The position numbers and the translations under genes were made by a program. From a virus (taxonomy: Duplodnaviria > Heunggongvirae > Uroviricota > Caudoviricetes), in the IMG/VR virus record IMGVR_UViG_2526164601_000037: a DNA stretch of 37,714 bases. One strand, given 5' to 3'. The number at the start of each line of letters is the position of its first letter. The stretch's first letter is position 1. The notes under the pieces are model-generated. The model made no database searches. It was not told where the DNA came from and was given only the letters and a program-made list of their open reading frames with translations. Below, piece by piece: positions 193-37,383 of the stretch.

Positions 193-735
193 TCAGCCAA
201 CAAATTTTGCAATGAAATACGTAGCCGCCGCTGTAAAAAGCGAAGTAAAGATGGCTATACACACAGGTATAATGATGCCACTCAACCGCCACTTCGTATT
301 ATCATCAACTTTGTCAAACCGCCGATTCATCTCATCCATAATCTTGTCAAAGCGTTTATCCATCGCTTCGGCAATCTCACCCTTCAGGCTGTTAATGTCT
401 GATTTGATCTGCTCTTTCAGGTGAGCTGTATCAGATTTAAGCTCACCTTTCAGATTCGCAATATCGCATTTAAGATCACCTTTCAGATTCGCAATGTCTG
501 CTTTGAGCTCACCTTTAACCTCACCAACATCGGCTTTGGTTGAGAGGTTTGTAGTGCGTTCAGCAAGCGTCGCAAGGTCGTTTCTTGTTAGCGATAAATC
601 ACCTTCGAGCCGCTCAATTCGCCTTTCAAGTTTATCTGACATTCCGCCTCCACTATCACCGCCTCCCCCACCGAAAGAGTTGCCAATGTCCTCACGAATA
701 AGGGTTATGCCATGCTCACTTTTAGCATATGCCAC
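193..735 (-). CDS. Coiled-coil protein with tandem 11-residue repeats and a C-terminal transmembrane anchor; function unknown
   Basis: ORF track; repeats DIANLKGDLKC / DIANLKGELKS / DTAHLKEQIKS / DINSLKGEIAE; Gly-rich N-terminus; hydrophobic C-terminal segment IIIPVCIAIFTSLFTAAATYFIAKF. True start may be the internal Met before SDKLERRIERLEG. Confidence 0.6.
   Translation of the reverse strand: MAYAKSEHGITLIREDIGNSFGGGGGDSGGGMSDKLERRIERLEGDLSLTRNDLATLAERTTNLSTKADVGEVKGELKADIANLKGDLKCDIANLKGELKSDTAHLKEQIKSDINSLKGEIAEAMDKRFDKIMDEMNRRFDKVDDNTKWRLSGIIIPVCIAIFTSLFTAAATYFIAKFVG
444..509. repeat. Tandem 33-bp coding repeats inside the coiled-coil gene
   Basis: Exact 19-bp direct repeat cacctttcagattcgcaat at 444..462 and 477..495, with degenerate neighbouring copies; period 33 bp keeps the reading frame. 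Confidence 0.6.
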
Positions 736-1149
736 TCAGATTCCCTCCCAAACTATATATCCTTTGTCTCTTGCCCAACAAACAACTGTGTGGGCTGTAT
801 ATGTGGATGTGAAGCCGCAATAAGAACATGACACTTCATACCGAGTATTGTAGATGTTAATGGGCTCGTTCTCCTTGTGTATGGGAGTGACATATTCCCA
901 ATCATTTGAATCATCATAATCATCAAGTTCAGGGTCTGTGCCGTGAACAACCGTATGTGGAATAAACAAATCTGGGCGCCCACACGAGAGACAAGAGGTT
1001 CTGGCTCCTCTATCTTTAAGGAATTGAATAAATAATTTGGGCGAAATCTGTTGCAGAACCTGCAAATGCCCACGTTCATTATCATTAAGAGACCTGTCTG
1101 CATATGGAAAATCATCAAATTTAAGAGGCTTCATATAAGGCATCTCCAA
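736..1149 (-). CDS. Hypothetical Cys-containing protein (CxxC pairs CLSC and CSYC); tightly coupled to the downstream coiled-coil gene
   Basis: ORF track; stop abuts the start of the 193..735 gene; the 5' end overlaps the 3' end of int, so the true start may be a downstream Met. Confidence 0.5.
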   Translation of the reverse strand: MEMPYMKPLKFDDFPYADRSLNDNERGHLQVLQQISPKLFIQFLKDRGARTSCLSCGRPDLFIPHTVVHGTDPELDDYDDSNDWEYVTPIHKENEPINIYNTRYEVSCSYCGFTSTYTAHTVVCWARDKGYIVWEGI

Positions 1150-2113
1150 GGGGATTAAATCTCACCGCATCCTGCAGGTAATCCGGCGCAAGATGGGCAT
1201 AAATCATCGTTGTCTGAATCTTTGCGTGCCCCAGAATTTTCTGGAGCGTCAGAATATTGCCGCCGTTCATCATGAAATGACTGGCGAAGGTGTGGCGCAG
1301 CGCATGAACAGCCTGGCCGTCAGGAACATCAGGTGCGACCGTTTTGATGACATCGCGAACCAATGGATAATCCAGCGTCGGAAACACCAGTTTCCCGCCC
1401 CGTTTTTTGATCTTTTCAAACAGGCTTTCAGAAATAGGAACGGTACGGTTTTTGCTGTTCTTCGTTTTTGAAAAAGTGATTCGACAATGAAGAACACGGC
1501 GCTGCTCCAGTGCCGCTACCTCGCCCCATCGCGCCCCGGTCGACAGAAGGATTTCGACAGCCAGCCGTTCATCGGGATTTTCAGCCAGTGCATCCAGCAA
1601 CTGAACACATTCAGACTTACTCAGATATCCCATTTCGCGCTCGTTAACCTTCATTCCTTTAAGGCCTTGAACGGGGTTATCGTTAAGAAAATGGCCGGAT
1701 GAGATGAGTGCGGTAAACATCGCGCTTAACGCCCCAATCTCTCGATTTATGGTGCTGGGCTGTATCCCCTGCTCTATCCTGGACACACGTAGCTCGGTGA
1801 GCATCGTTGTATTAAGTTTATGCACGCACGGGTCATCCATTGCCTCACTCAAGCGCAGCAATTTAAGGCGCGTGTTATGCCCTGACTTCATTAGCTGGCC
1901 GTGGTATTTCCACCACAAGTCAATAAGCACTGACAGCGGACGGCGATCAATGGAGTTTCCTTTCCACTCATTGTTATGCTGTTGCGCCAGCACCCACCGC
2001 TCATATAAAACTGCATCCGATTTCGTTTTAAATTTTTTGCGAATGCGTTTGCCTTTACGCCCCTCCGGGCGCATGTCAAGAAGATACCCTCCCGGAATTG
2101 ATTTTATGCTCAT
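1121..2113 (-). CDS. int: Tyrosine integrase, P2 Int-like
   Basis: N-terminus MSIKSIPGGYLLDMRPEGRKGKRIRKKF resembles the P2 Int N-terminus as recalled; catalytic-region motifs HALRHTFAS and MIYAHL. Start trimmed from the ORF-track 2263 to the ATG at 2113. Confidence 0.9.
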   Translation of the reverse strand: MSIKSIPGGYLLDMRPEGRKGKRIRKKFKTKSDAVLYERWVLAQQHNNEWKGNSIDRRPLSVLIDLWWKYHGQLMKSGHNTRLKLLRLSEAMDDPCVHKLNTTMLTELRVSRIEQGIQPSTINREIGALSAMFTALISSGHFLNDNPVQGLKGMKVNEREMGYLSKSECVQLLDALAENPDERLAVEILLSTGARWGEVAALEQRRVLHCRITFSKTKNSKNRTVPISESLFEKIKKRGGKLVFPTLDYPLVRDVIKTVAPDVPDGQAVHALRHTFASHFMMNGGNILTLQKILGHAKIQTTMIYAHLAPDYLQDAVRFNPLGDALYEAS

Positions 2114-2162
2114 TCGTGAAACCCCAGCGTTACAAGACCACCATGCCCCCAGCGCTCCATGA

Positions 2163-2474
2163 TTAGCCGGGCTGTGTGCCAGTCTTGCGGGGTTTTTGAG
2201 AAGGCGATGTGCTTTTTGGCCCATCAGGGGAGAGAGACGGACTGATCTGCCCAGCAGCCTCATTTGTTTCGTTACTCATCAACCACGTGGTGTATTTTTT
2301 AAAGTTCGGATGCATTGTGATTTTCAGTAAAACCTCCGTCCCCACACCTCTAATACCAGTCTCATATTGCTTAACTGTACCAACCGCAATACCTATTGAA
2401 TCCGCGAACTTTGCCTGGCTAAGTCCCTCAGATTCTCGAATTGCTTTTAGCTTCTTTGATATCTCTATTGACAT
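2163..2474 (-). CDS. C: Immunity repressor, P2 C-like
   Basis: Helix-turn-helix segment LSQAKFADSIGIAVGTVKQYETG and C-terminal FKKYTTWLMSNE...GQISPSL resembling P2 C as recalled; start trimmed to the internal ATG at 2474; divergent from the early operon. Confidence 0.8.
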   Translation of the reverse strand: MSIEISKKLKAIRESEGLSQAKFADSIGIAVGTVKQYETGIRGVGTEVLLKITMHPNFKKYTTWLMSNETNEAAGQISPSLSPDGPKSTSPSQKPRKTGTQPG

Positions 2475-5769: not shown

Positions 5770-6159
5770 ATGATTGACGCTCATGACTTCACAAGATGGG
5801 TGCGCACACAGGACACCAGTCTGGCTCCCGTTCTTCAGGGATTATTTGATCTCTACATCCGTGGTCGTGACAACAGAGCACGCACCACAAAACCAGAGAA
5901 TGCAGACACCCTTTATTTCACAGTAGACGACTGCTACCGCGTGGACTTCACACCACACGGGCTGGCGTTGCACTGCCTGACACCACACGGCGAATCACTA
6001 CTGGCGTATTACGACTCCCCGGCCTCCGTATTTGCGGCAATGCTGGCGCATCGCACTGCTGGCGGGTGTGCCTCGCTGAGTGAATACACCGCTGAATTTA
6101 ACCGCCTTTCCACCCTCTTCTCGCAGGAGTGGCAGCGCGTGACGGGATACCAGCCATGA
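5770..6159 (+). CDS. Hypothetical protein immediately upstream of, and translationally coupled to, gene A
   Basis: ORF track, 129 aa; its stop overlaps the A start (ATGA at 6156..6159). Confidence 0.55.
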   Translation: MIDAHDFTRWVRTQDTSLAPVLQGLFDLYIRGRDNRARTTKPENADTLYFTVDDCYRVDFTPHGLALHCLTPHGESLLAYYDSPASVFAAMLAHRTAGGCASLSEYTAEFNRLSTLFSQEWQRVTGYQP

Positions 6160-8996
6160 GTGAGTTTGCATGGAGCTGGAATGAACCACGGCCAGCCATT
6201 GATCCAGCCAGATTTACGGAGCACAGGCAGGAAACTGAAACCGACCTGCAACGCGCCATCCGTTACTACCTTGAGGCGGACAAAAGGGCACAGAAAGAAC
6301 AGGAAGCGAAGGAAGAAGCCTTTTTCGCACAATCCGCCATGGGTAAAAAACTCATGGCATCCCTTGAGGAAGCCGGACAGCGTGAAAAGCTGGCACAGAG
6401 CATCATCAGTAAGCGCCGGGCAACAGAACAAGACCCGGTAGCCCGTGCCTTTGCCACACTGAAGGCGCTTCCCGTTTATCTGCGAGAACCTCTGAGCCGC
6501 CACCTCTCTTTCCTGCGCAAGAAGCAGGAAGCCGATCGTCAGAAAGGCAAAAAGAGCTGGCAGGCGGAACGCTATGCACGCGGAACCCTGCGCAAAATAT
6601 TCGAACGTCTGGACCGCACCGACAGCCGCTGGCTGACACCGGGTTATCGCTCCCTTGCCGGACGCGAACGCCTGGACGATTTACTTTACCTGCCGCAGCT
6701 CAACAAACACCAGATACAGACGCTGGCCACCATGACGGCGGCGATGTTCAGCAGCACCTTCGAAAAACTCTGCGATGGCTTTGGCGCGACTGATGGCGAA
6801 CTGACCATGGATGTAACGCTGAAGGCGTATCAGATGCTGGCCCGCATGGCGTTACACCTGCACGCCATGCCTCCGCATTATGACGCACTGACAACAGACA
6901 AAGACCGGAGGAACGAACCGGACACGGAGCTGCTGCCGGGCGCAATCCTTCGCCTGACCTGTGCGGAATGGTGGAAACGAAAACTGTGGCTGTTACGTTG
7001 CGAGTGGAGAGAAGAACAACTCCGCGCCGCCTGTCTGGTTTCCAGAAAAACATCGCCCTATCTGAGCCAGGACGCGTTAAGCGAGTTTCGCGCACAGCGC
7101 GAGAAAACACGCGATTTCCTGAAAAGTTTCATGCTGGAAAATGAAGACGGGTTCACGATTGATCTCGAGACGGTGTATTACGCGGGAGTAAGTAACCCGG
7201 TTCACCGTAAGGCAGAAATGATGGCCACCATGAAGGGGCTGGAACTTCTGGCCGAAGCCCGTGGCGACAAAGCGGTGTTTCTGACTGTCACCTGCCCGTC
7301 AAAATACCACGCCACAACAGAGAACGGTCATCCGAATCCCAAATGGAACGGGGCCACCATGCGCGACTCCAGTGATTACCTGGTTAACACGTTTTTTGCG
7401 GCGGTCCGCAAGAAACTGAACCGCGACGGCCTGCGCTGGTATGGCATCCGCACGGTGGAGCCTCACCATGACGGCACCGTGCACTGGCATATGATGGTCT
7501 TTGCACATCCGGAAGAAATCGACACCATTGTGTCCCACACCCGCGATATTGCCATTCAGGAAGATCGTCACGAGCTGGGTGATGATATTACCCCACGCTT
7601 TAAGGCGGAGTACGTCGACGGCTCAAAAGGCACACCGACCAGCTACATCGCCACCTACATCGGGAAAAACCTGGACAGCCGTGCCGTGGATGGCATCGAC
7701 CCGAAAACGGGCAAGCCACGCGTTGACCACGAAACAGGTAAATCAATGGCCGAGAGTGTGGAGCGCGCCATCGGCTGGGCGCGCCTTCACCGGGTCCGCC
7801 AGTTCCAGTTCTTTGGCATCCCCTCCCGTCAGGTGTGGCGTGAACTCCGCCGCCTTGCCAGCCAGATGGCACGCAACCCGGAAGGCCCGCAACGGCTGAA
7901 GGATGACGCAATGGATGCGGTACTCGCTGCCGCTGATGCCGGATGTTTTGCCACCTACATTGAAAAACAGGGTGGCGTACTTGTTCCGCGCAAGGACTAC
8001 CTGATTCGCACCGCCTACGACCTCGCAGATGAGCTGAACGATTACGGCGAACAGAGTGTACAGATTTACGGGATCTGGTCGCCATTCATCGGGGAATCCT
8101 CCCGTGTGTGCACGCATCCGGATAACTGGAAGCTGGTAAGACGTAAACCGGAAGTGGAAGACAGCGCCCGCGAAAATGGTTTTGACCTTCAGGGCGGCCC
8201 TGCCGCCCCTTGGACTCGTGGCAATAACTGTCCCCGTGTACAGGAAACGGACAACAACGGGACAGAACAGCCGGAAGAACGGCCAGCACCGTGGCCGCAG
8301 CTCCCTGACGGCGTTGAAGTGAACGAATGGATGCGCTCACTGAAACGACACGAACGCCGGGCGCTGATGCGTTCGCTTCGTGACAAACAGGCAAAAAACA
8401 GCAGCGATGAAATGCAGAGCTGGACACAGAGCCGCAAACAGCAGCGGCCTTTGCCTGATAACCACGAATTACTCGCTAAAGAATGGCGGGAGTCTGCTGA
8501 ATCTCTCGGCCTGCATATCGGTGAACAACAGATGCAGCACCTGTTACGGGGCGGCAGTCTGTACGTTGACGGCAGCATCATTGCACCGCAGGGATTTGAA
8601 ATTGTACGCAAACCGGATACCCGCCCGGACAGCCGAATCACGCAGCTCTGGCAGCGCCTGAGCCGTAATCACGGTGTAAGCAGCACGGAGATCCGCCATA
8701 ACCCGATCGCCAGCTATCTGGAACAGCTGGGGGCATCAGACCCTGAAGCCGCCACACGCCTGGCATCCACACTTCAGCAGGACCAGAACACCATGAAAAC
8801 ACCCGTTACCGTGCTTTCTGACATGCTGCGCGCCATCCGCGACGCAGAGCACGCACAGAGAATCAGTGAAACCACTGAACGTGCCCGCCGCAAAGCAGAC
8901 CTGCTGCGGGGTGGCCTGACCAGTGGAAACAAAAAACAGACAGAAACGGGACTCACGAATCCCGTAAATGAGCAAAAAACGCGCAGCGATATATGA
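6156..8996 (+). CDS. A: Rolling-circle replication initiator (endonuclease), P2 gpA family
   Basis: HUH-type motif HWHMMVF and tyrosine motif YIATYIGKN; position at the end of the early operon. Alternative GTG start at 6129. Confidence 0.9.
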   Translation: MSEFAWSWNEPRPAIDPARFTEHRQETETDLQRAIRYYLEADKRAQKEQEAKEEAFFAQSAMGKKLMASLEEAGQREKLAQSIISKRRATEQDPVARAFATLKALPVYLREPLSRHLSFLRKKQEADRQKGKKSWQAERYARGTLRKIFERLDRTDSRWLTPGYRSLAGRERLDDLLYLPQLNKHQIQTLATMTAAMFSSTFEKLCDGFGATDGELTMDVTLKAYQMLARMALHLHAMPPHYDALTTDKDRRNEPDTELLPGAILRLTCAEWWKRKLWLLRCEWREEQLRAACLVSRKTSPYLSQDALSEFRAQREKTRDFLKSFMLENEDGFTIDLETVYYAGVSNPVHRKAEMMATMKGLELLAEARGDKAVFLTVTCPSKYHATTENGHPNPKWNGATMRDSSDYLVNTFFAAVRKKLNRDGLRWYGIRTVEPHHDGTVHWHMMVFAHPEEIDTIVSHTRDIAIQEDRHELGDDITPRFKAEYVDGSKGTPTSYIATYIGKNLDSRAVDGIDPKTGKPRVDHETGKSMAESVERAIGWARLHRVRQFQFFGIPSRQVWRELRRLASQMARNPEGPQRLKDDAMDAVLAAADAGCFATYIEKQGGVLVPRKDYLIRTAYDLADELNDYGEQSVQIYGIWSPFIGESSRVCTHPDNWKLVRRKPEVEDSARENGFDLQGGPAAPWTRGNNCPRVQETDNNGTEQPEERPAPWPQLPDGVEVNEWMRSLKRHERRALMRSLRDKQAKNSSDEMQSWTQSRKQQRPLPDNHELLAKEWRESAESLGLHIGEQQMQHLLRGGSLYVDGSIIAPQGFEIVRKPDTRPDSRITQLWQRLSRNHGVSSTEIRHNPIASYLEQLGASDPEAATRLASTLQQDQNTMKTPVTVLSDMLRAIRDAEHAQRISETTERARRKADLLRGGLTSGNKKQTETGLTNPVNEQKTRSDI

Positions 8997-9041
8997 AGCG
9001 CGCACAAAACAGGCAAAAACGGGATTTCAGAATCCCGTAAA
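8944..9041. repeat. Two 25-bp dyad-symmetric repeats upstream of parM; candidate ParR-binding centromere or operator
   Basis: aaacgggactcacgaatcccgtaaa (8944..8968) and aaacgggatttcagaatcccgtaaa (9017..9041), each with an ACGGGA...TCCCGT inverted repeat; the first lies within the 3' end of A. Confidence 0.4.
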
Positions 9042-9072
9042 CGATTAATTAATCAACATAAGGAAAAGCGAC

Positions 9073-10032
9073 ATGAAAATTTGTATCGACGACGGCTCCA
9101 CCAACATCAAGCTGGCATGGACTGAGAACAGCGAACGCCGCAACGCCATCAGCCCGAACAGCTTCAAGTCGGAATGGTCTGCGCCGTTCGGTGGCTCGCA
9201 GCCTGCGAACTACATGCTTGATGGCGTGCGCTATGGTTTTGATCCGGTCAGCGATCGCTTTGTCCAGACGACCGACACGCAATACCAGTACAGCGATGTG
9301 AATGTAATCGCCATTCACCACGCGCTGGTCAAATCAGGCATCACACCACAGGAGGTGGATGTGGTTGTCACCCTGCCACTGAGCGAGTATTTCGACACAA
9401 ACGCACAGCCGGACATGGCCAACATCAACCGCAAAAAAGCGAACGTTATGCGCCCGGTGGAGTACCAGAACGGTGAGGCATTCACTATCCGTAACGTGCG
9501 GGTTATGCCTGAATCCATTCCGGCTGGCTTTAAAGCACTGGCTGACATGAGTCCGTTTGAATCCCTGCTGATTGTGGATTTAGGCGGAACCACGCTGGAT
9601 GTGGCAAAGGTTCAGGGACAACTGGCAGGTATCAGCCAGGTGTTTTGCGATCCACACGTAGGCGTTTCCCTGATGGCCGATGCCGTACTGTCGGTGATGG
9701 CCACTAACGGTATGCGTACCAGTCACCACATCGCCAATACCATTATCGAACATCGCCATGATGAAGCCTGGCTGCGCCAGCACATCCACAATGACGCGCA
9801 TTACAACAGCCTGATGGCGGTTATTCGTGAAAAGGAAGAAACACTGAAACAACGCGTGATCCGCGCGCTGGCGGGTTTTTCGGGTTACGGGCGGGTGATG
9901 GTTGTCGGTGGAGGGGCGGAGATTGTGGCACCCGCTATCCGCGAAGCCTGCGGAGTTAATGCGACTTTCATCGCGGACGGGGTGCCACAGTTTGCTCTGG
10001 TTAATGGGCTGTACGCAATGGACAAGGAGTAA
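9073..10032 (+). CDS. parM: Actin-like segregation ATPase, ParM/StbA family
   Basis: N-terminus MKICIDDGSTNIKLAW and motifs SPNSF, YSDVNVIAIHHAL, VMPESIPAG, LIVDLGGTTLD, VMVVGGGAE match plasmid R1 ParM as recalled; RBS AAGGAAAAG. Confidence 0.9.
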   Translation: MKICIDDGSTNIKLAWTENSERRNAISPNSFKSEWSAPFGGSQPANYMLDGVRYGFDPVSDRFVQTTDTQYQYSDVNVIAIHHALVKSGITPQEVDVVVTLPLSEYFDTNAQPDMANINRKKANVMRPVEYQNGEAFTIRNVRVMPESIPAGFKALADMSPFESLLIVDLGGTTLDVAKVQGQLAGISQVFCDPHVGVSLMADAVLSVMATNGMRTSHHIANTIIEHRHDEAWLRQHIHNDAHYNSLMAVIREKEETLKQRVIRALAGFSGYGRVMVVGGGAEIVAPAIREACGVNATFIADGVPQFALVNGLYAMDKE

Positions 10033-10036
10033 ACCA

Positions 10037-10348
10037 ATGACGACACCAACCAGACGGATAAGTTTCTATCTGAAGCCCGCCGCCGTCAAGAACGAAGGCG
10101 AAGCATGCGCCTGGCTGGACAGCCTTACACCAGAAGCCCGCAAAAGCGGCCAACGCGTGGCTTTTCTGGCCGGGCTGGCACTTCTGAAAATGAATCCGGC
10201 AGAGGCTTACCGACTGGCTGCATGGGCTGACGATGAGGCGTTATCGGTGACACAAACCAGGACAGAACGCCCCGTGTCACAGCCAGTACCAACCGCACAG
10301 ATAACCAGTCAGATGGCAGGGAATATCCGGGCATTATTTCCTGAATGA
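10037..10348 (+). CDS. parR: ParR-like centromere-binding adaptor
   Basis: Immediately downstream of parM with strong RBS AAGGAG; ISFYLKP, AGLALL and C-terminal RALFPE resemble R1 ParR as recalled. Start trimmed to the ATG at 10037. Confidence 0.7.
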   Translation: MTTPTRRISFYLKPAAVKNEGEACAWLDSLTPEARKSGQRVAFLAGLALLKMNPAEAYRLAAWADDEALSVTQTRTERPVSQPVPTAQITSQMAGNIRALFPE

Positions 10349-10408
10349 CGAATTTGACGGCTTTTAATTTTATCGGGGTGCACTGTCGCCCCGCACGAGG
10401 AAAACACG

Positions 10409-10933
10409 ATGAAAAAATACGAATACATGCTAATGAAAGAAGCACTGCGGGCTGGTCTGGCTCCCTGTCCTGTATCCGTAGAAGCTGTTGTTGGGAACAC
10501 GATTTTCCGAACGCTGCGAAATCGCGTATCCGTGAAGATGATTCACCAACCACCCAAATCTACCAGCATGATCTATCTGCCGCTGCCCGAGGCTATCAAA
10601 CTTATGCGTTCGCTGAAATTTGCGATTTGGATGCAGACACAACTCAACAAAGCGGTGCAAAACACCTTCGTTAAGAAACTGATGCCGGAGCTTGCTGCCA
10701 GATGTGCAAAATGTACCAGACCCGCACTTCAATTTGATCTGTCATTGATTCAACAAGCTACGGAGGCAGAACTGTACCGCCTGTCACCTCTCCATGATGC
10801 TCACACGGAAGCCTCAGAAATGTTCCGGCTCATGTTTCAATTTAATTTTGCCGTTCGACGCACACGCATTCAGGTCAATCGCATGATGCAGGCGCAGGAA
10901 GAGCTGACGCAACACAAAGGAGGCAACCAGTGA
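10409..10933 (+). CDS. Hypothetical protein in the A-to-Q cargo region
   Basis: ORF track, 174 aa, RBS GAGG eight nt upstream; no similarity recognised. Confidence 0.55.
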   Translation: MKKYEYMLMKEALRAGLAPCPVSVEAVVGNTIFRTLRNRVSVKMIHQPPKSTSMIYLPLPEAIKLMRSLKFAIWMQTQLNKAVQNTFVKKLMPELAARCAKCTRPALQFDLSLIQQATEAELYRLSPLHDAHTEASEMFRLMFQFNFAVRRTRIQVNRMMQAQEELTQHKGGNQ

Positions 10934-11105
10934 GCAAAATTGACTATCAGGCATTACGCGAGGCGGCACAAAACTATCAATCGACGCTGGCGTGGTATGA
11001 GGTTGACGCGGGCTAGTTTTGCCGCAAGGATAATTCGTTTCAGCGGGTGATTTTTTGCGCTATCATTCCGGCAGTGGTTCACGATTATTGGCAGGAAAGG
11101 CAATT

Positions 11106-11699
11106 ATGAGCAGTAAAAAAAATAAAATAACATCTATGGCCGCAGCGCTGGCGGTGGCTCTCGCCCCTGTTCCTGCCAGTAGCATTGTGCATCATGACTT
11201 ATCAATCTCCCGGCACAGTACGTCTACGCTATCCCTCCAGGACGTAAAGGATTCTGTGGCATACCTTCCTATTGATGAGGCCACCAGTTATATGCTTAAC
11301 CTGGCTGATAGGATGAAGACACACAGGGCAAACCTTCGCATCGAATGGGAAGAAAAGCAGATCCCTATTATTCTGAAAAATCAGAAAAAAGAGACTCAGG
11401 AAGGGTTTGAAAGCCTTTTCCGTCATATTGCGGTATGTGCAAGTTTTGTCGAGGCTGCAAGGGTTGCGCTGAAAAGCGTACCTGAAAGTAACGCGGAACT
11501 GAGAAAAGAGATTGTCGCTTTTGCTCGTTCCGCTGCGACGCTCCGCTATACGATTGAAGATATTTTATCCTTCATTGAAAGCACGCATGTGCCGAAGAAA
11601 ACTTCAGATGCTGATCTGGGTGTTACCGCCGATCAGGTTCGCGCACTTATCCGCAGTGAACATAAAAAGCTGGGCCTTAAAGATCCAACGTTCCATTAA
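11106..11699 (+). CDS. Hypothetical protein upstream of the YafO-like toxin gene; candidate antitoxin or partner, not YafN-like
   Basis: ORF 11055..11699 trimmed to the ATG at 11106 (RBS AGGAAAGG); hydrophobic N-terminal stretch AAALAVALAPVPA; 9-nt gap to the downstream toxin gene. Confidence 0.55.
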   Translation: MSSKKNKITSMAAALAVALAPVPASSIVHHDLSISRHSTSTLSLQDVKDSVAYLPIDEATSYMLNLADRMKTHRANLRIEWEEKQIPIILKNQKKETQEGFESLFRHIAVCASFVEAARVALKSVPESNAELRKEIVAFARSAATLRYTIEDILSFIESTHVPKKTSDADLGVTADQVRALIRSEHKKLGLKDPTFH

Positions 11700-11708
11700 G
11701 GCAGGGCC

Positions 11709-12089
11709 ATGATTAAAGTCTCTGTCCACAATGACATAGAACTCCCCGCAGTTGCTCGTAAATATGCACATGCTTTGCAGTCATGGAAAAACGGCGGATC
11801 TTTACCCTCAGTCTTTGGCAACGAAGGGCAGTGGGAAGATAGCGGGCGTCTTCGTGATTCTTTTGTTTTTAAGATTCACATTCGTTTACCTGATGAACAG
11901 CCGTGGCCTGCAAAGCTACCTGCCGCCTCGCGTAAATCAAACAGTTATCTTGTTTACTCCCGCCATTTCTTATATCCAGATAAGTATCAGCTAATCAGCA
12001 TTATGACACCCAATGCGCATGAGTTAGCCCGTACATCCTACATGGCAGAAATTGAGCGCAGAGCAGAAGAGTTCCAGTCTTCTTTTTGA
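11709..12089 (+). CDS. YafO-family toxin-like protein (ribosome-dependent mRNA interferase family)
   Basis: Segments SWKNGGSLPSVFG, FKIHIRLP, SYLVYSRH, QLISIMTPNAHELAR and MAEIERRAEEF align with E. coli YafO as recalled. Confidence 0.7.
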   Translation: MIKVSVHNDIELPAVARKYAHALQSWKNGGSLPSVFGNEGQWEDSGRLRDSFVFKIHIRLPDEQPWPAKLPAASRKSNSYLVYSRHFLYPDKYQLISIMTPNAHELARTSYMAEIERRAEEFQSSF

Positions 12090-33472: not shown

Positions 33473-34108
33473 TTAGCGAGCTAATATATTCAAAGAATTT
33501 AACAATTGAGTGTCGAGTGTTTCAGTTGCAGGAATCGGTAATCCATTCGCAATGCGGTAATTTTTCACAGACAGCCTTGTGGATGGCCCCATTATGCCGT
33601 CAATATTTCCGTTATAAAATCCCCTGTCCAGCAATGCGAACTGAACTCGCATAATCAATCGCTTACGTTTCTCTGCATCAGAAGCAAGCCCATTACTCGT
33701 ACGGTTAACCTCTGAAGTTCCAACAGAACTCGTGTTAGTGGTTCTATTATTATCGTTAGAACGAAGTGCACGCACCGAGGAAGAGGACGATGAGGAACTT
33801 GCACCTGAACTTGAAGAACCAGATGAACTTGGTGAGCTGTATGTTTTTGGATAATAGGGGGTACTTCCACCATAGTATCCACCACCTGATGAGGATCTAT
33901 GAGAGCTATGGCTCCTATGAGAGCTATGGCTTCGATGCCCTGCGATATAAAATGGGACTTCCGTGTTAAGTGGAGCTATCACTAAATCATGCTCATTAAG
34001 AGTCATACCAGGTAAATCACTCGCTCCTGTAGATGAATCGCTTGCCCATACAGAATTGTTGAGAGCCAAAAATCCCGGAAGTAGAGCAGCAAAATTAAAC
34101 TTTTTCAT
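33473..34108 (-). CDS. hxsA: His-Xaa-Ser repeat protein (HxsA-like precursor) with signal peptide, Ser-rich tract and C-terminal peptidoglycan-binding-like domain
   Basis: Start at the ATG at 34108 (MKKFNFAALLPGFLALNNSVWA); repeats HRSHSSHRSHSSHRSSS; poly-Ser tract; C-terminal LDRGFYNGNIDGIMGPSTRLSVKNYRIANGLP. ORF-track frame extends upstream to 34186. Confidence 0.7.
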   Translation of the reverse strand: MKKFNFAALLPGFLALNNSVWASDSSTGASDLPGMTLNEHDLVIAPLNTEVPFYIAGHRSHSSHRSHSSHRSSSGGGYYGGSTPYYPKTYSSPSSSGSSSSGASSSSSSSSVRALRSNDNNRTTNTSSVGTSEVNRTSNGLASDAEKRKRLIMRVQFALLDRGFYNGNIDGIMGPSTRLSVKNYRIANGLPIPATETLDTQLLNSLNILAR

Positions 34109-35217
34109 AAAATTGGTCTCGGTGATTGATGAAAACGGCCTTTTGAGGAACTGAAATAGCCAGCACAGGAAGGCTTCTGAGTACATTCATCACATTCTTT
34201 TGGATAGTAATTTTTCCAATCAGAGATCGACTGAACAGCAAGCTCCCTAGCCCTTTCAGGAAGATAACACAAAGGATAATTAAAAATTGTCAGAGGTATG
34301 CCTGACCTGTATGCAGCGTCTATGGCAGAGATTATTTTCTCACTATAACTACTGTGATCAATGAAGATGGTGGACCAGTTTTTTCGTGCCCAACCGATAG
34401 GCTCCAACCCCATAAGGGAAATCTGATTGATGTTGGAGAACACACGGCCAGCGAATTCTACAATATCATCCAATTCGGTATAGTTAGCCAGTGTAGGAAT
34501 AACTCTAAGTTCGATATTAATCCCCAAGTTTCCTGCATTGATTAACCCTTTAACCGTTTCATTAAATGCGCCATCACTCCCTACCAGATGATCATGCACA
34601 AGTGGTCTTGATGAGTAGAGCGGGATACCAAAGGTGATTTTGATCTTTTTGCTTCGCTTTGCCATTTCCTGTGTAAAGTTGATATCAGCAAATTTGCGTC
34701 CGTTTGTTAAAACATGTAAAGCAGTATCTGGTGAATTCTCGATGATAAAGTCAATGAAGTGAAGGAAGTCATCCCCATATAGCAAAGGTTCACCACCGCT
34801 GACCCCAACAACTCCGTTCAAGCCAAATGAAGCTATAGCAAGAGCTGATTGGGTAAGTAGCCAGTCATCATTTATTTTCTTTGGTGGCTGCGAACAAAAC
34901 AGACACAAGTTATTGCAGCGTTCCGTAACTAAGACAGTATTATGATTGGCTTTGCGTGACAGAATAACGCGTATCATATTGCCATTGTTGATTATCCCAA
35001 TATCTCCATCTTCAATTGACTCAAATAATTCAGTGCTAATAACAGAGAAATCAAAGCATGGTGGAATGGCATCATTATTGCCTTCAGCAACTACTAGCAA
35101 ATTGGGCAAAAAGAATAAAGGGTTCACTGGTTTTTGTTTGCATAACCGATAGAACCCCGTGGGCACGTTCTCTGTAGAAGCAAAATGAAAGATATCGTTC
35201 CTGATAACCTCAGACAT
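34105..35217 (-). CDS. hxsC: Radical SAM maturase of the His-Xaa-Ser system (HxsC-like; B/C assignment tentative)
   Basis: CNNLCLFC (CX3CX2C) cluster motif, GGEPLL SAM-binding motif, C-terminal Cys cluster CDECTQKPSC; overlaps neighbours by a few nt. Confidence 0.8.
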   Translation of the reverse strand: MSEVIRNDIFHFASTENVPTGFYRLCKQKPVNPLFFLPNLLVVAEGNNDAIPPCFDFSVISTELFESIEDGDIGIINNGNMIRVILSRKANHNTVLVTERCNNLCLFCSQPPKKINDDWLLTQSALAIASFGLNGVVGVSGGEPLLYGDDFLHFIDFIIENSPDTALHVLTNGRKFADINFTQEMAKRSKKIKITFGIPLYSSRPLVHDHLVGSDGAFNETVKGLINAGNLGINIELRVIPTLANYTELDDIVEFAGRVFSNINQISLMGLEPIGWARKNWSTIFIDHSSYSEKIISAIDAAYRSGIPLTIFNYPLCYLPERARELAVQSISDWKNYYPKECDECTQKPSCAGYFSSSKGRFHQSPRPIL

Positions 35218-36598
35218 ATGCCCATCCTTTTAGCATCTCAGCCTTCGAACCACCCTCTGAGATGCAGTTCATCAGATACCTGAACATCCCCTTGTGGTAT
35301 TGACAAAACGTTGAACGACTCCTATCACCGACAGGCTCACCCTGTACACTTATGTTCTGGCATGGATCTGAACCACAAAATGGTTGATATGCACATGTAT
35401 CACAACCTGGCAGAGCAAAATTGAACGATGAACTCAATACTGCGTTATAGTAAGGACTATCAGAAAATGATAGCGTCTTAACTTCACCCGCACTGAACTC
35501 CATTTCAGGATTCACCTTCTGCAACATACGGCTCTCATCGCTACCATATACTCGACCGTCATAATTGAAAAGAATACTGTTAAGCACGACTCCACTTGGA
35601 GACTTTAAATCCGCATAACCACTAAAACCGGGATTGAAGATCCTTTTCAGATGAATGGAGGCCGAATGTTCCACAACCCTTATCCCTTCATTATTAATCT
35701 TAAGGATTTCATCTATCAACGAGGCATAGAAGCTGAAGTATTCGTCCATAGAAAAGGTGAAAGAAGCTTTTTGTGCAAACCCATAGGGACTAACAGGTCG
35801 GATAAACATGTCCTTGAGACCAAGAGACAAGTGAGCCTGAACAATCGATTCAGGACGTCTGATAAGCTCTTTAGTAACTGTAGTAACCGTTGCAACGCGG
35901 CCAGCACCTAAAGAGTGTTTGATAGCCTCCACCCCTGACACTGTTCTACTGTACGCAAGCCCACGACCAAGAATTCGATTACTGTTGTGAACAACTTCCT
36001 CACCATCAAGCGACACAGAGAACGTTATGTTCCGGTCTCTCGACCATTCAATCATATCCTCATTCAAGACAGACAGACTTGATGCCACCACCATCTCAAA
36101 ATTGGTTCTTCCCAGCGTTTCAGCACATTGATCATAGATGCTCTGAATTAAATCAAACCGCAAGAGAGGCTCCCCACCCTGTATCTCTATTTTGTAAGGT
36201 GGCGTTGATAGTTTTTTAATAGCCGAAATAATATCGGGGATGAGCTCAGGATTTAGGTCGTAACCTAAGGCATTAACAGAAGCTCTACTAACCTGGCAAT
36301 ACTTGCATGTATGGTCACAACGTAATGTGGGTACAATCATGAAAATTGGCCTGACAGCCAGTTCATTCATCAATCGTTTTGCAAAAGCAGAACTTAAAGC
36401 ATAGGGAGTTATAGCAGATGAGCTTTCACTGGTTATGAAAAGCTTACTTTCTAGCACGTTTGATTGCTCCGAACTAATTCGCTCATCAGAAAGATCAATA
36501 AGGTCTTGCTCACCAATGAAATGATGAAAACCTGCAAGGTTGCTTATAAACACCTGTCCATTAGGCAATCTGTCAAAATTAAATGGCATCAATTCCAT
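35210..36598 (-). CDS. hxsB: Radical SAM maturase of the His-Xaa-Ser system with SPASM-like C-terminal Cys cluster (HxsB-like; B/C assignment tentative)
   Basis: CDHTCKYC (CX3CX2C), GGEPLL, C-terminal CDTCAYQPFCGSDPC; start overlaps the hxsD stop. Confidence 0.8.
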   Translation of the reverse strand: MELMPFNFDRLPNGQVFISNLAGFHHFIGEQDLIDLSDERISSEQSNVLESKLFITSESSSAITPYALSSAFAKRLMNELAVRPIFMIVPTLRCDHTCKYCQVSRASVNALGYDLNPELIPDIISAIKKLSTPPYKIEIQGGEPLLRFDLIQSIYDQCAETLGRTNFEMVVASSLSVLNEDMIEWSRDRNITFSVSLDGEEVVHNSNRILGRGLAYSRTVSGVEAIKHSLGAGRVATVTTVTKELIRRPESIVQAHLSLGLKDMFIRPVSPYGFAQKASFTFSMDEYFSFYASLIDEILKINNEGIRVVEHSASIHLKRIFNPGFSGYADLKSPSGVVLNSILFNYDGRVYGSDESRMLQKVNPEMEFSAGEVKTLSFSDSPYYNAVLSSSFNFALPGCDTCAYQPFCGSDPCQNISVQGEPVGDRSRSTFCQYHKGMFRYLMNCISEGGSKAEMLKGWAYV

Positions 36599-36912
36599 TA
36601 TGAAAGTCTCTCATCAACACTGCGAAGCACTTTATGGACAATAGAGTCTCTCAACGCCCCTGTTTTATGCTGTAGCTTTTCTCGCAAAGAGTAATCATTA
36701 AGCAGCCTATCGAATTCATAAAGGAATTTGGGATTATCGTTTTCAAAAGAGATTATCCAGTGGGAAACGTCTTCATGGAGTTTCCATCGAGTAAGCGGAG
36801 TCATCCAATATAGACTATTGCGTATAACCCATTCAGAATATAGTTCTTTCTCAAACACTCTTTCGCTCATTGCAATTATCTTCCAATACAAATATTCATG
36901 ATCAGCAACCAC
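36598..36912 (-). CDS. hxsD: His-Xaa-Ser system protein HxsD-like
   Basis: Contains LLNDYSLRE, matching the LLNDYxLRE signature recalled for the HxsD family; first gene of the minus-strand cassette. Confidence 0.8.
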   Translation of the reverse strand: MVADHEYLYWKIIAMSERVFEKELYSEWVIRNSLYWMTPLTRWKLHEDVSHWIISFENDNPKFLYEFDRLLNDYSLREKLQHKTGALRDSIVHKVLRSVDERLS

Positions 36913-37122: not shown

Positions 37123-37383
37123 ATGTTCCGTTGTCCACTTTGTGGCGCATCTGCCCGTATCCGCACTAGTCGTCCGGAAAATGATTCAAACACTGTGCGG
37201 CAAAAGTATTACCAATGTAACAACCTAGAATGCGGCGTATGCTTCTCAACACTGGAAGCTTTCCATAAATTCACATCGAAACACGCCTCCGGCGCTCACT
37301 CTTCAGAAGGTATCCCGTGGCATGAACTGCCAGCTTCACACAAAGGAAACAATCAGATGAGTTTGCCCTTACCTCAAAATTAA
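37123..37383 (+). CDS. ogr: Late-gene transcription activator, Ogr/Delta zinc-finger family
   Basis: MFRCPLCGASARIRTSRPE...YYQCNNLECG matches the P2 Ogr pattern (MFHCPLC...ARTSR...QC.N..C) as recalled; RBS AGGGAGG. Confidence 0.85.
   Translation: MFRCPLCGASARIRTSRPENDSNTVRQKYYQCNNLECGVCFSTLEAFHKFTSKHASGAHSSEGIPWHELPASHKGNNQMSLPLPQN

Follow-up and report, generated by a model that had tools for sequence, protein, structure and literature searches.

The closest described counterparts of the locus analysed here, positions 8930-10348 of the tailed-phage record IMGVR_UViG_2526164601_000037 (37,714 nucleotides, the whole of which is called the window below), are the type II partition systems of the low-copy plasmids R1 (ParMRC) and R100 (StbAB). 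The phage locus, carried by an integrating phage, displays the same order of repeats, parM and parR, and both of its proteins belong to the same Pfam families. ParM of R1 and R100 is about 47-50% identical to the phage protein over the full length. The adaptors have in common an N-terminal strand-helix-helix region and a C-terminal K/G-N-x-x-x-L motif, the phage ParR being 25% identical to R100 StbB and 14 residues shorter (103 versus 117 amino acids, aa). The cis-acting site is where the systems differ most visibly. R1 parC is made of two clusters of about five 11-bp direct iterons flanking a strong autoregulated promoter, and direct iteron arrays of 10-11 bp in two clusters are also found at the R100, IncFIA/N and IncL/M loci, with a TTGAC-type promoter-like sequence between the clusters of R100. 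The phage site, by contrast, carries two 42-nt units with internal dyads, and its two units and the absence of a detectable sigma-70 promoter set it apart from R1-type parC.

Two systems of normally integrated elements are also instructive. In the Corynebacterium prophage CGP3, the adaptor AlpA binds repeats (alpS) upstream of alpAC and ties circular phage DNA to filaments of AlpC; the alp genes are early, induced on excision and needed for efficient replication of circular phage DNA, replication being reduced about 2-fold in alp mutants (PMC4446434). This system resembles the phage module in being carried by an integrated prophage and in combining an actin-like filament former, a DNA-binding adaptor and upstream repeats. 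It differs in that the actin-like family is unrelated or distant, the adaptor gene comes first, the host is Gram-positive and the element is cryptic. In the SXT/R391 family of integrative and conjugative elements (ICEs), the type II locus SrpMRC stabilises the transient excised form, which replicates by rolling circle, and its expression is linked to the element's activation (PMC4489591). Here the element is not a phage, and SrpM and SrpR have only a distant relationship to R1 ParMR; the phage ParM, in contrast, is closely homologous to the R1 type.

Phage D6, a P1-like phage, possesses StbA-type partition with an R1-type ParM, as do P88-like phages. P1-like phages are kept as plasmid prophages, whereas P88-like phages integrate. 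The same module, with no substantive difference, is present in P88 and other Xuanwuvirus members. It is already known as a lineage-wide annotated trait of P88-like phages, so its novelty is low: 14 phage records and over 1300 chromosomes of E. coli already annotate the genes as 'plasmid segregation protein ParM' and 'partition protein', and the proteins are named in RefSeq. P88 was picked up for its partition genes in a screen for phage-plasmids (Pfeifer et al. 2021), and the module has been mentioned in passing with the speculation that it serves plasmid maintenance (Pfeifer 2021, Rousset 2022); it was not analysed in the P88 paper or in the C. rodentium prophage paper. In the literature we found no experimental study of a P88-like parMR and no description of the upstream repeats.

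ParM, ParR and the upstream repeats

An initial annotation of the window had proposed a ParM/ParR partition module of plasmid type, preceded by dyad repeats and lying directly behind the P2-type replication gene. The features concerned are the following.

6129-8996, plus strand: gene A, P2-type rolling-circle replication endonuclease (Phage_GPA, 1.8e-131)
8930-8971, plus strand: repeat unit 1, candidate parC, 42 nt, with dyad ACGGGACTCACGAATCCCGT at 8946-8965
9003-9044, plus strand: repeat unit 2, candidate parC, 42 nt, with dyad ACGGGATTTCAGAATCCCGT at 9019-9038
8930-9044, no strand assigned: whole candidate centromere region, two units and phased A-tracts
9073-10032, plus strand: parM, actin-like ATPase of 319 aa (Pfam, R1 ParM structures, phrog_691)
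10037-10348, plus strand: parR, adaptor of 103 aa (Pfam PF10784, phrog_2515, profile match to 2JD3)
1121-2263, minus strand: tyrosine integrase of the prophage, given for context

Both proteins turned out to be what the initial annotation had taken them for. The ParM open reading frame (ORF), preceded by the Shine-Dalgarno sequence AAGGA at 9060-9064, matches the Pfam domains StbA_N (7.7e-82) and ParM C-terminal (1.4e-68), and structures of R1 ParM (1mwk and others) align with it from end to end (E = 2e-92). In this alignment the strings IDDGSTNIKL, MPESIPAG, DLGGTTLD and GGGAE face near-identical strings of R1 ParM; we take them to be the phosphate-1, catalytic-Glu, phosphate-2 and adenosine motifs of the nucleotide-binding site, respectively, an assignment made here. 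The parR ATG lies 4 nt past the parM stop, and the 103-aa ORF is matched by Plasmid_stab_B (PF10784, the ParR/StbB family) at 1.6e-24. In PHROGs, the two proteins fall into families 691 (ParM) and 2515 (ParR), both labelled 'partition protein'.

The structural assignment of ParR is less direct. Compared with the Protein Data Bank, a profile of ParR relatives found the N-terminal ribbon-helix-helix structure of pB171 ParR (2JD3), covering residues 8-74, as its best match, at a weak E value of 0.0096, and the AlphaFold2 monomer, with a mean confidence (pLDDT) of 58.8, gives two helices but leaves the strand unmodelled and the N-terminus unstructured. Conservation also delineates the domains. The N-terminal PTRRISFYLKP, predicted to form the strand of a ribbon-helix-helix fold, is invariant and the helical domain that follows is conserved; a hypervariable linker (about residues 66-93) then leads to a conserved C-terminal NI(R/Q)ALFPE. 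R100 StbB and two other plasmid ParRs, 24-28% identical to the phage protein, show the same domain layout, and R6, F10, P14 and the C-terminal Asn (N96) are invariant even in comparison with these plasmid ParRs. By analogy with the R1 complex, the C-terminal peptide would bind ParM.

The initial annotation had considered that the module might be an inactive relic in a chromosomal prophage. The element is indeed chromosomal (see below), but the module is clearly no relic and is under strong purifying selection. The comparison took in 85 loci: 80 from IMG/VR, 3 from genomes, one from a chromosome, and the window itself. A full-length ParM is encoded by 84 of them and an intact ParR by 82. For parM, the pairwise ratio of nonsynonymous to synonymous substitution (dN/dS) comes to 0.054; within ParR it is 0.13 over residues 1-65 and 0.53 over the linker. 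Across the window and loci L005-L084, parR has two or more allelic types, of 103 and 104 aa and about 53% identical. Both alleles have the same first 18 codons and residues, the same C-terminal motif and the same upstream repeats. In one subset of phages DNA homology ends at window position 10091, which points to recombination breakpoints inside parR.

The repeats were described by the initial annotation as two 25-bp dyad-symmetric elements, the first inside the 3' end of gene A. They are present and contain dyads, but the repeated units are longer: two 42-nt units, 81% identical and 73 bp apart from start to start (about 7 helical turns), each carrying a 20-nt imperfect dyad of the form ACGGGA-N8-TCCCGT. 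Gene A stops at 8996, and unit 1 falls within its 22 final codons, as had been noticed; unit 2 is intergenic and ends 29 nt before the parM start codon. The dyad motif occurs twice in the 37.7-kb window against an expectation of 0.07, at least two matches being obtained in none of 100 shuffles, and its core is present nowhere in the window outside the two units. Compared with a Hafnia homologue, unit 1 is 80% and unit 2 86% identical, versus 48% for the spacer between them, 46% for the preceding gpA coding DNA and 72% for third positions of conserved parM codons; both units stand out as conserved islands with the look of a footprint. The 73-bp spacing is kept in 76 of 79 relatives, and the positions of the dyads that vary are the centre and the outermost pairs. 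A-tracts at 8931, 8974, 9006 and 9015 share a 10.5-bp phase (coherence 0.94, P about 0.009), which is a hint only, with four tracts chosen post hoc.

The position of the repeats follows parM rather than the upstream gene. In locus L060 the upstream sequence is a different one and homology restarts at the first base of unit 1, so that the last codons of the upstream ORF come from the par cassette; L094 and L097 have one or two additional genes between gpA and parM, and there too the repeats adjoin parM. In more distant lineages the sequence changes. Plesiomonas has a two-copy 26-nt direct repeat of another sequence (GCGGGACAAC...) with 72-bp spacing, while in Serratia and Enterobacter two arms of 14-20 nt stand upstream of parM in inverted orientation. 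In a second Hafnia lineage the repeat tool reported no repeat family, and two GGG(A/T)T...CCC elements were seen by eye only. These comparisons lead us to infer that the repeats belong to the par cassette as a functional cis-element and to predict that they are ParR sites. That the two ParR alleles share their N-terminal 18 residues as well as the repeats is consistent with recognition by the ribbon-helix-helix strand. Taken as a whole, profile, structure-sequence and comparative evidence supports a plasmid-type (type II) ParM/ParR module behind a candidate centromere, and in our best explanation window 8930-10348 is a complete type II (ParMRC-like) DNA-segregation cassette.

The P88-like prophage and its relatives

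By its sequence the window is a member of the P88-like P2-type phages (Xuanwuvirus, Peduoviridae): the region of the module is 95-98% identical at the DNA level to Escherichia phage P88, Xuanwuvirus P884B11, Citrobacter phage phiSM and other P2-like phages. The annotated genes follow the P2-type order int, C, cox ... A, parM, parR, cargo, Q, P, O, N, M and so on, and the differences from other P88-like genomes lie in the integrase/att module and in the cargo. In the window gpA is a protein of 955 aa in which the Phage_GPA domain spans residues 194-518 only; the C-terminal part of about 440 residues is without family match and differs between lineages. Relatives with an intact gpA gene encode proteins of 785 to 913 aa, and L060 has its gpA 3' region replaced.

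The window is an integrated prophage with flanking host DNA. Within its first 2.6 kb, a part is matched by all 5426 of 5426 E. coli genomes, and the best match has the window begin right after btuC, in core chromosomal DNA. Its right end is inside prophage cargo, so that the right junction lies outside the window. Colinearity with NZ_CP019944, assumed in a search for att sites, was rejected: the integrase module differs, and the window starts after btuC and ends in cargo. Between btuC and the integrase, in the left junction region, a DUF1640/CCDC90-like ORF (193-735, minus strand) with weak SMC-like similarity could belong to the phage or to a remnant element.

Among 5426 complete E. coli genomes, parMR is found in 1375, at 1544 chromosomal places and 2 places on plasmid replicons. 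The 3.5-kb int/cox early region of a P88-like phage is found in 1389 genomes, compared with about 1375 with parMR. P88-like phages are homologous in their DNA from unit 1 as far as the parR stop, past which the cargo is variable. These data support the view that parMR is a fixed backbone part of P88-like phages, presumably forming the end of the early replication operon. The absence of such a module from canonical P2, put forward by the initial annotation, agrees with a tblastn search of phage ParM against 50,697 phage records, which returned only P88-like phages and the P1-like phage D6 (47.5% identity).

Beyond E. coli, a scan of genome contigs with the single protein gave three near-identical loci only, and diverged relatives were reached by a search for homologous proteins and contig look-ups. 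Their ParMs are 94% and 61% (Hafnia), 62% (Plesiomonas), 58% (Serratia) and 53% (Enterobacter) identical to the phage protein, and in all five of the relatives examined (two from Hafnia, one from each other genus) the locus belongs to a P2-like prophage and has gpA on one side and portal/terminase genes on the other. Plasmid-borne ParMs do not exceed 52% identity to the phage ParM, and three ParM relatives at 48-51% pairwise identity are in plasmid or ICE contexts. A neighbour-joining tree of ParM contains two deep phage groups, E. coli/Hafnia/Plesiomonas and Serratia/Enterobacter, and does not settle their monophyly. These comparisons support an old association of parMR with P2-like phages.

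Expression and role of the module

The module directly follows gene A, as the initial annotation had it; it is on the same strand, with 76 nt between the end of gene A and the parM start. A consensus scan of 8600-10600 detected no sigma-70 promoter, and scans of four diverged lineages found none that would be usable upstream of parM; the sole promoter hits in those lineages (L096, L097) terminate on the ATG itself. There was no plus-strand terminator between gene A and parM in the scan and no Ogr-type late-promoter dyad (TGT-N12-ACA) upstream of parM. Because of the same-strand order, the 76-nt gap and the lack of a detectable promoter or plus-strand terminator, parMR appears as the distal end of the early operon, and the simplest reading is that it would be on at infection or induction rather than in the repressed prophage. 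Since no sigma-70 promoter is detectable before parM, an operator role of the repeats, which the initial annotation had offered besides that of a centromere, is doubtful.

We favour the explanation, with a probability of roughly 0.6, that this type II module is co-transcribed with the early replication operon and acts on excised, infecting or replicating phage circles, as AlpAC and SrpMRC do in their elements, and does not serve stable plasmid maintenance. P2-type phages replicate by a rolling-circle mode initiated by gpA which yields circular genomes, as established for P2. After infection or induction, the early promoter would transcribe cox through A into parM-parR, and gpA-driven replication would produce circular phage genomes. 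ParR dimers would bind the dyads at 8946-8965 and 9019-9038, possibly spreading over the phased A-tracts, and form one partition complex per circle. By homology to R1 ParMRC, the C-terminal helix of ParR would then capture ATP-ParM filaments and the bound genomes would be pushed apart. The likely benefit would lie in the extrachromosomal phase: replicating circles would be spread or positioned so as to replicate and be packaged efficiently, and an unintegrated or excised circle would be kept in both daughter cells.

Several points weigh against this explanation. Binding of ParR to the repeats is inferred from sequence, and ParR and the repeats show no covariation, since the recognition strand is nearly invariant. 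Full centromere activity is uncertain, because there are only two dyads compared with the 10 iterons flanking the promoter in R1 parC. The promoter scan was a crude consensus search which a weak or activator-dependent promoter could escape, and expression of parMR in lysogens is possible. Moreover, the two deep ParM groups may reflect two separate acquisitions of parMR.

A plasmid lifestyle, in which ParMRC would keep the P88-like prophage as a low-copy plasmid at least in some hosts, was implied by the initial annotation and corresponds to the speculation of Pfeifer 2021 and Rousset 2022. Phage-plasmids typically have partition systems, D6 with its related ParM being such a case, and one complete P88-like genome (NZ_CP148288.1, L100, from an E. 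coli isolate of a cat) is deposited as a circular 'plasmid' of 34,461 bp. In this record the integrase and methyltransferase/com ends are joined across the record start, so that attP is intact; it could be an excised circle caught by the assembly or a true episomal state. The same phage type is nevertheless chromosomal, at 80% coverage or more, in 281 genomes, and in PLSDB most matches are insertions into replicons between 228 kb and 1.4 Mb in size. With the presence of an integrase, host DNA flanking the window, the overwhelmingly chromosomal places counted above and no plasmid replication gene seen among the genes annotated or scanned, where gpA is the sole replication protein noted, we regard this lifestyle as improbable. 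Two further records, 520873 and 503458, were considered as episomes; 'Escherichia phage 520873' (NC_049344) was rejected, because this linear record is an excerpt of a prophage, with host yecA at its start and with frameshifts and IS100, and this rejection covers 520873 only. No better placed is the possibility that parMR is a moron (lysogenic-conversion cargo) expressed from the integrated prophage and acting to destabilise competing plasmids, in anti-phage defence or in segregation of the host chromosome at the integration site. The module does stand at the start of the gpA-gpQ hotspot, which carries defence and conversion genes, and a Citrobacter prophage paper lists it as a 'fitness' gene. 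It is, however, invariant in the lineage while true hotspot cargo changes immediately downstream, neither protein has a PADLOC match, and the consensus scan found no promoter of its own. Cross-reaction with IncF centromeres is also unlikely, because the repeats differ from R1 parC iterons and ParR is so far from R100 StbB.

Other explanations concern the repeats alone. The dyads might form hairpins, working as minus-strand intrinsic terminators which insulate gene A from antisense transcription of the cargo, or as elements of RNA processing or stability. A scan marks both as minus-strand terminator-like elements, in which a T-rich tail comes after a stem; the fold of the 8925-9075 RNA has z = -4.98, and the common dyad 2 substitutions A9019G and C9036T would keep G-U pairs in plus-strand RNA. 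Against this, the variants of dyad 1 are of four types, three of which disrupt pairing, and no compensatory double changes were seen; there is no plus-strand U-tract, and no minus-strand feature is placed so as to need termination there, parM and parR being on the plus strand. In Serratia and Enterobacter the arms are 26-28 nt apart. In Plesiomonas and the second Hafnia lineage the repeats have a dyad symmetry of just 3-4 bp and no terminator-like hit was obtained for either strand, yet the two-copy, 72-bp architecture is kept. A hairpin function thus seems unlikely to us, if a shade less so than the two possibilities just discussed. The origin of P2 replication is within gene A, and the repeats could be sites of gene A or of the replication origin, bound by gpA or a host factor and upstream of parM by chance; repeat 1 is indeed inside the gene A reading frame. 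We give this very little credence in view of the exact restart of homology at unit 1 behind other sequence in L060, the repeats that stay with parM in L094 and L097 despite genes inserted after gpA, and a repeat architecture that follows the ParM/ParR lineage.

Neighbouring cargo and biological meaning

The variable cargo begins with a 174-aa ORF straight after parR (10409-10933). Pfam, NCBIfam, PHROGs and PADLOC gave no match for it, and RefSeq places an ead/Ea22-like pseudogene fragment just past it. Further into the gpA-gpQ hotspot comes a YafO-family type II toxin (11709-12089, Pfam YafO_toxin 2.3e-27). The ORF of 198-214 aa ahead of it (11055-11699), without match in the same four collections, could be an unusually large, unclassified antitoxin. 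Near the other end of the window, just before ogr (37123-37383) and a Hok/Gef gene, lies a His-Xaa-Ser radical S-adenosylmethionine cluster on the minus strand (34105-36912) composed of hxsC (34105-35217), hxsB (35210-36598) and hxsD (36598-36912). All three genes exceed NCBIfam cut-offs, and by these matches the cluster is a peptide-maturation system carried as phage cargo. The cargo behind parR also varies from one diverged P2-like relative to another: HicA/HicB toxin-antitoxin in Serratia (L096, 6450-7084) and a KAP-family NTPase in Enterobacter (L097, 6411-7757). This fits parR being the left edge of a defence and cargo hotspot across genera.

The gain made here is modest: the cassette is delimited (8930-10348), a cis-site is nominated, and the hypothesis is moved from a plasmid prophage to the extrachromosomal replicative phase of the phage. 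About a quarter of E. coli genomes carry parMR in a prophage that is essentially always integrated, yet the module is under strong purifying selection. The published proposal of plasmid maintenance does not fit this chromosomal distribution. P88-like phages can be induced in E. coli, form plaques and are open to genetic work, so that what an actin-type segregation machine does for an integrating phage is easy to test. In its broadest form, which we hold tentatively and at a little under even odds, the hypothesis makes ParMRC an early function that would be core to a whole branch of P2-like phages across Enterobacterales, a phage-owned actin spindle acting on a minimal, two-site, promoter-less centromere unlike plasmid parC, which separates or positions the monomeric circles made by gpA or carries an unintegrated circle through division. 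If this is true, an actin-based system for positioning genomes would be shown for the first time in an integrating tailed phage of a Gram-negative host.

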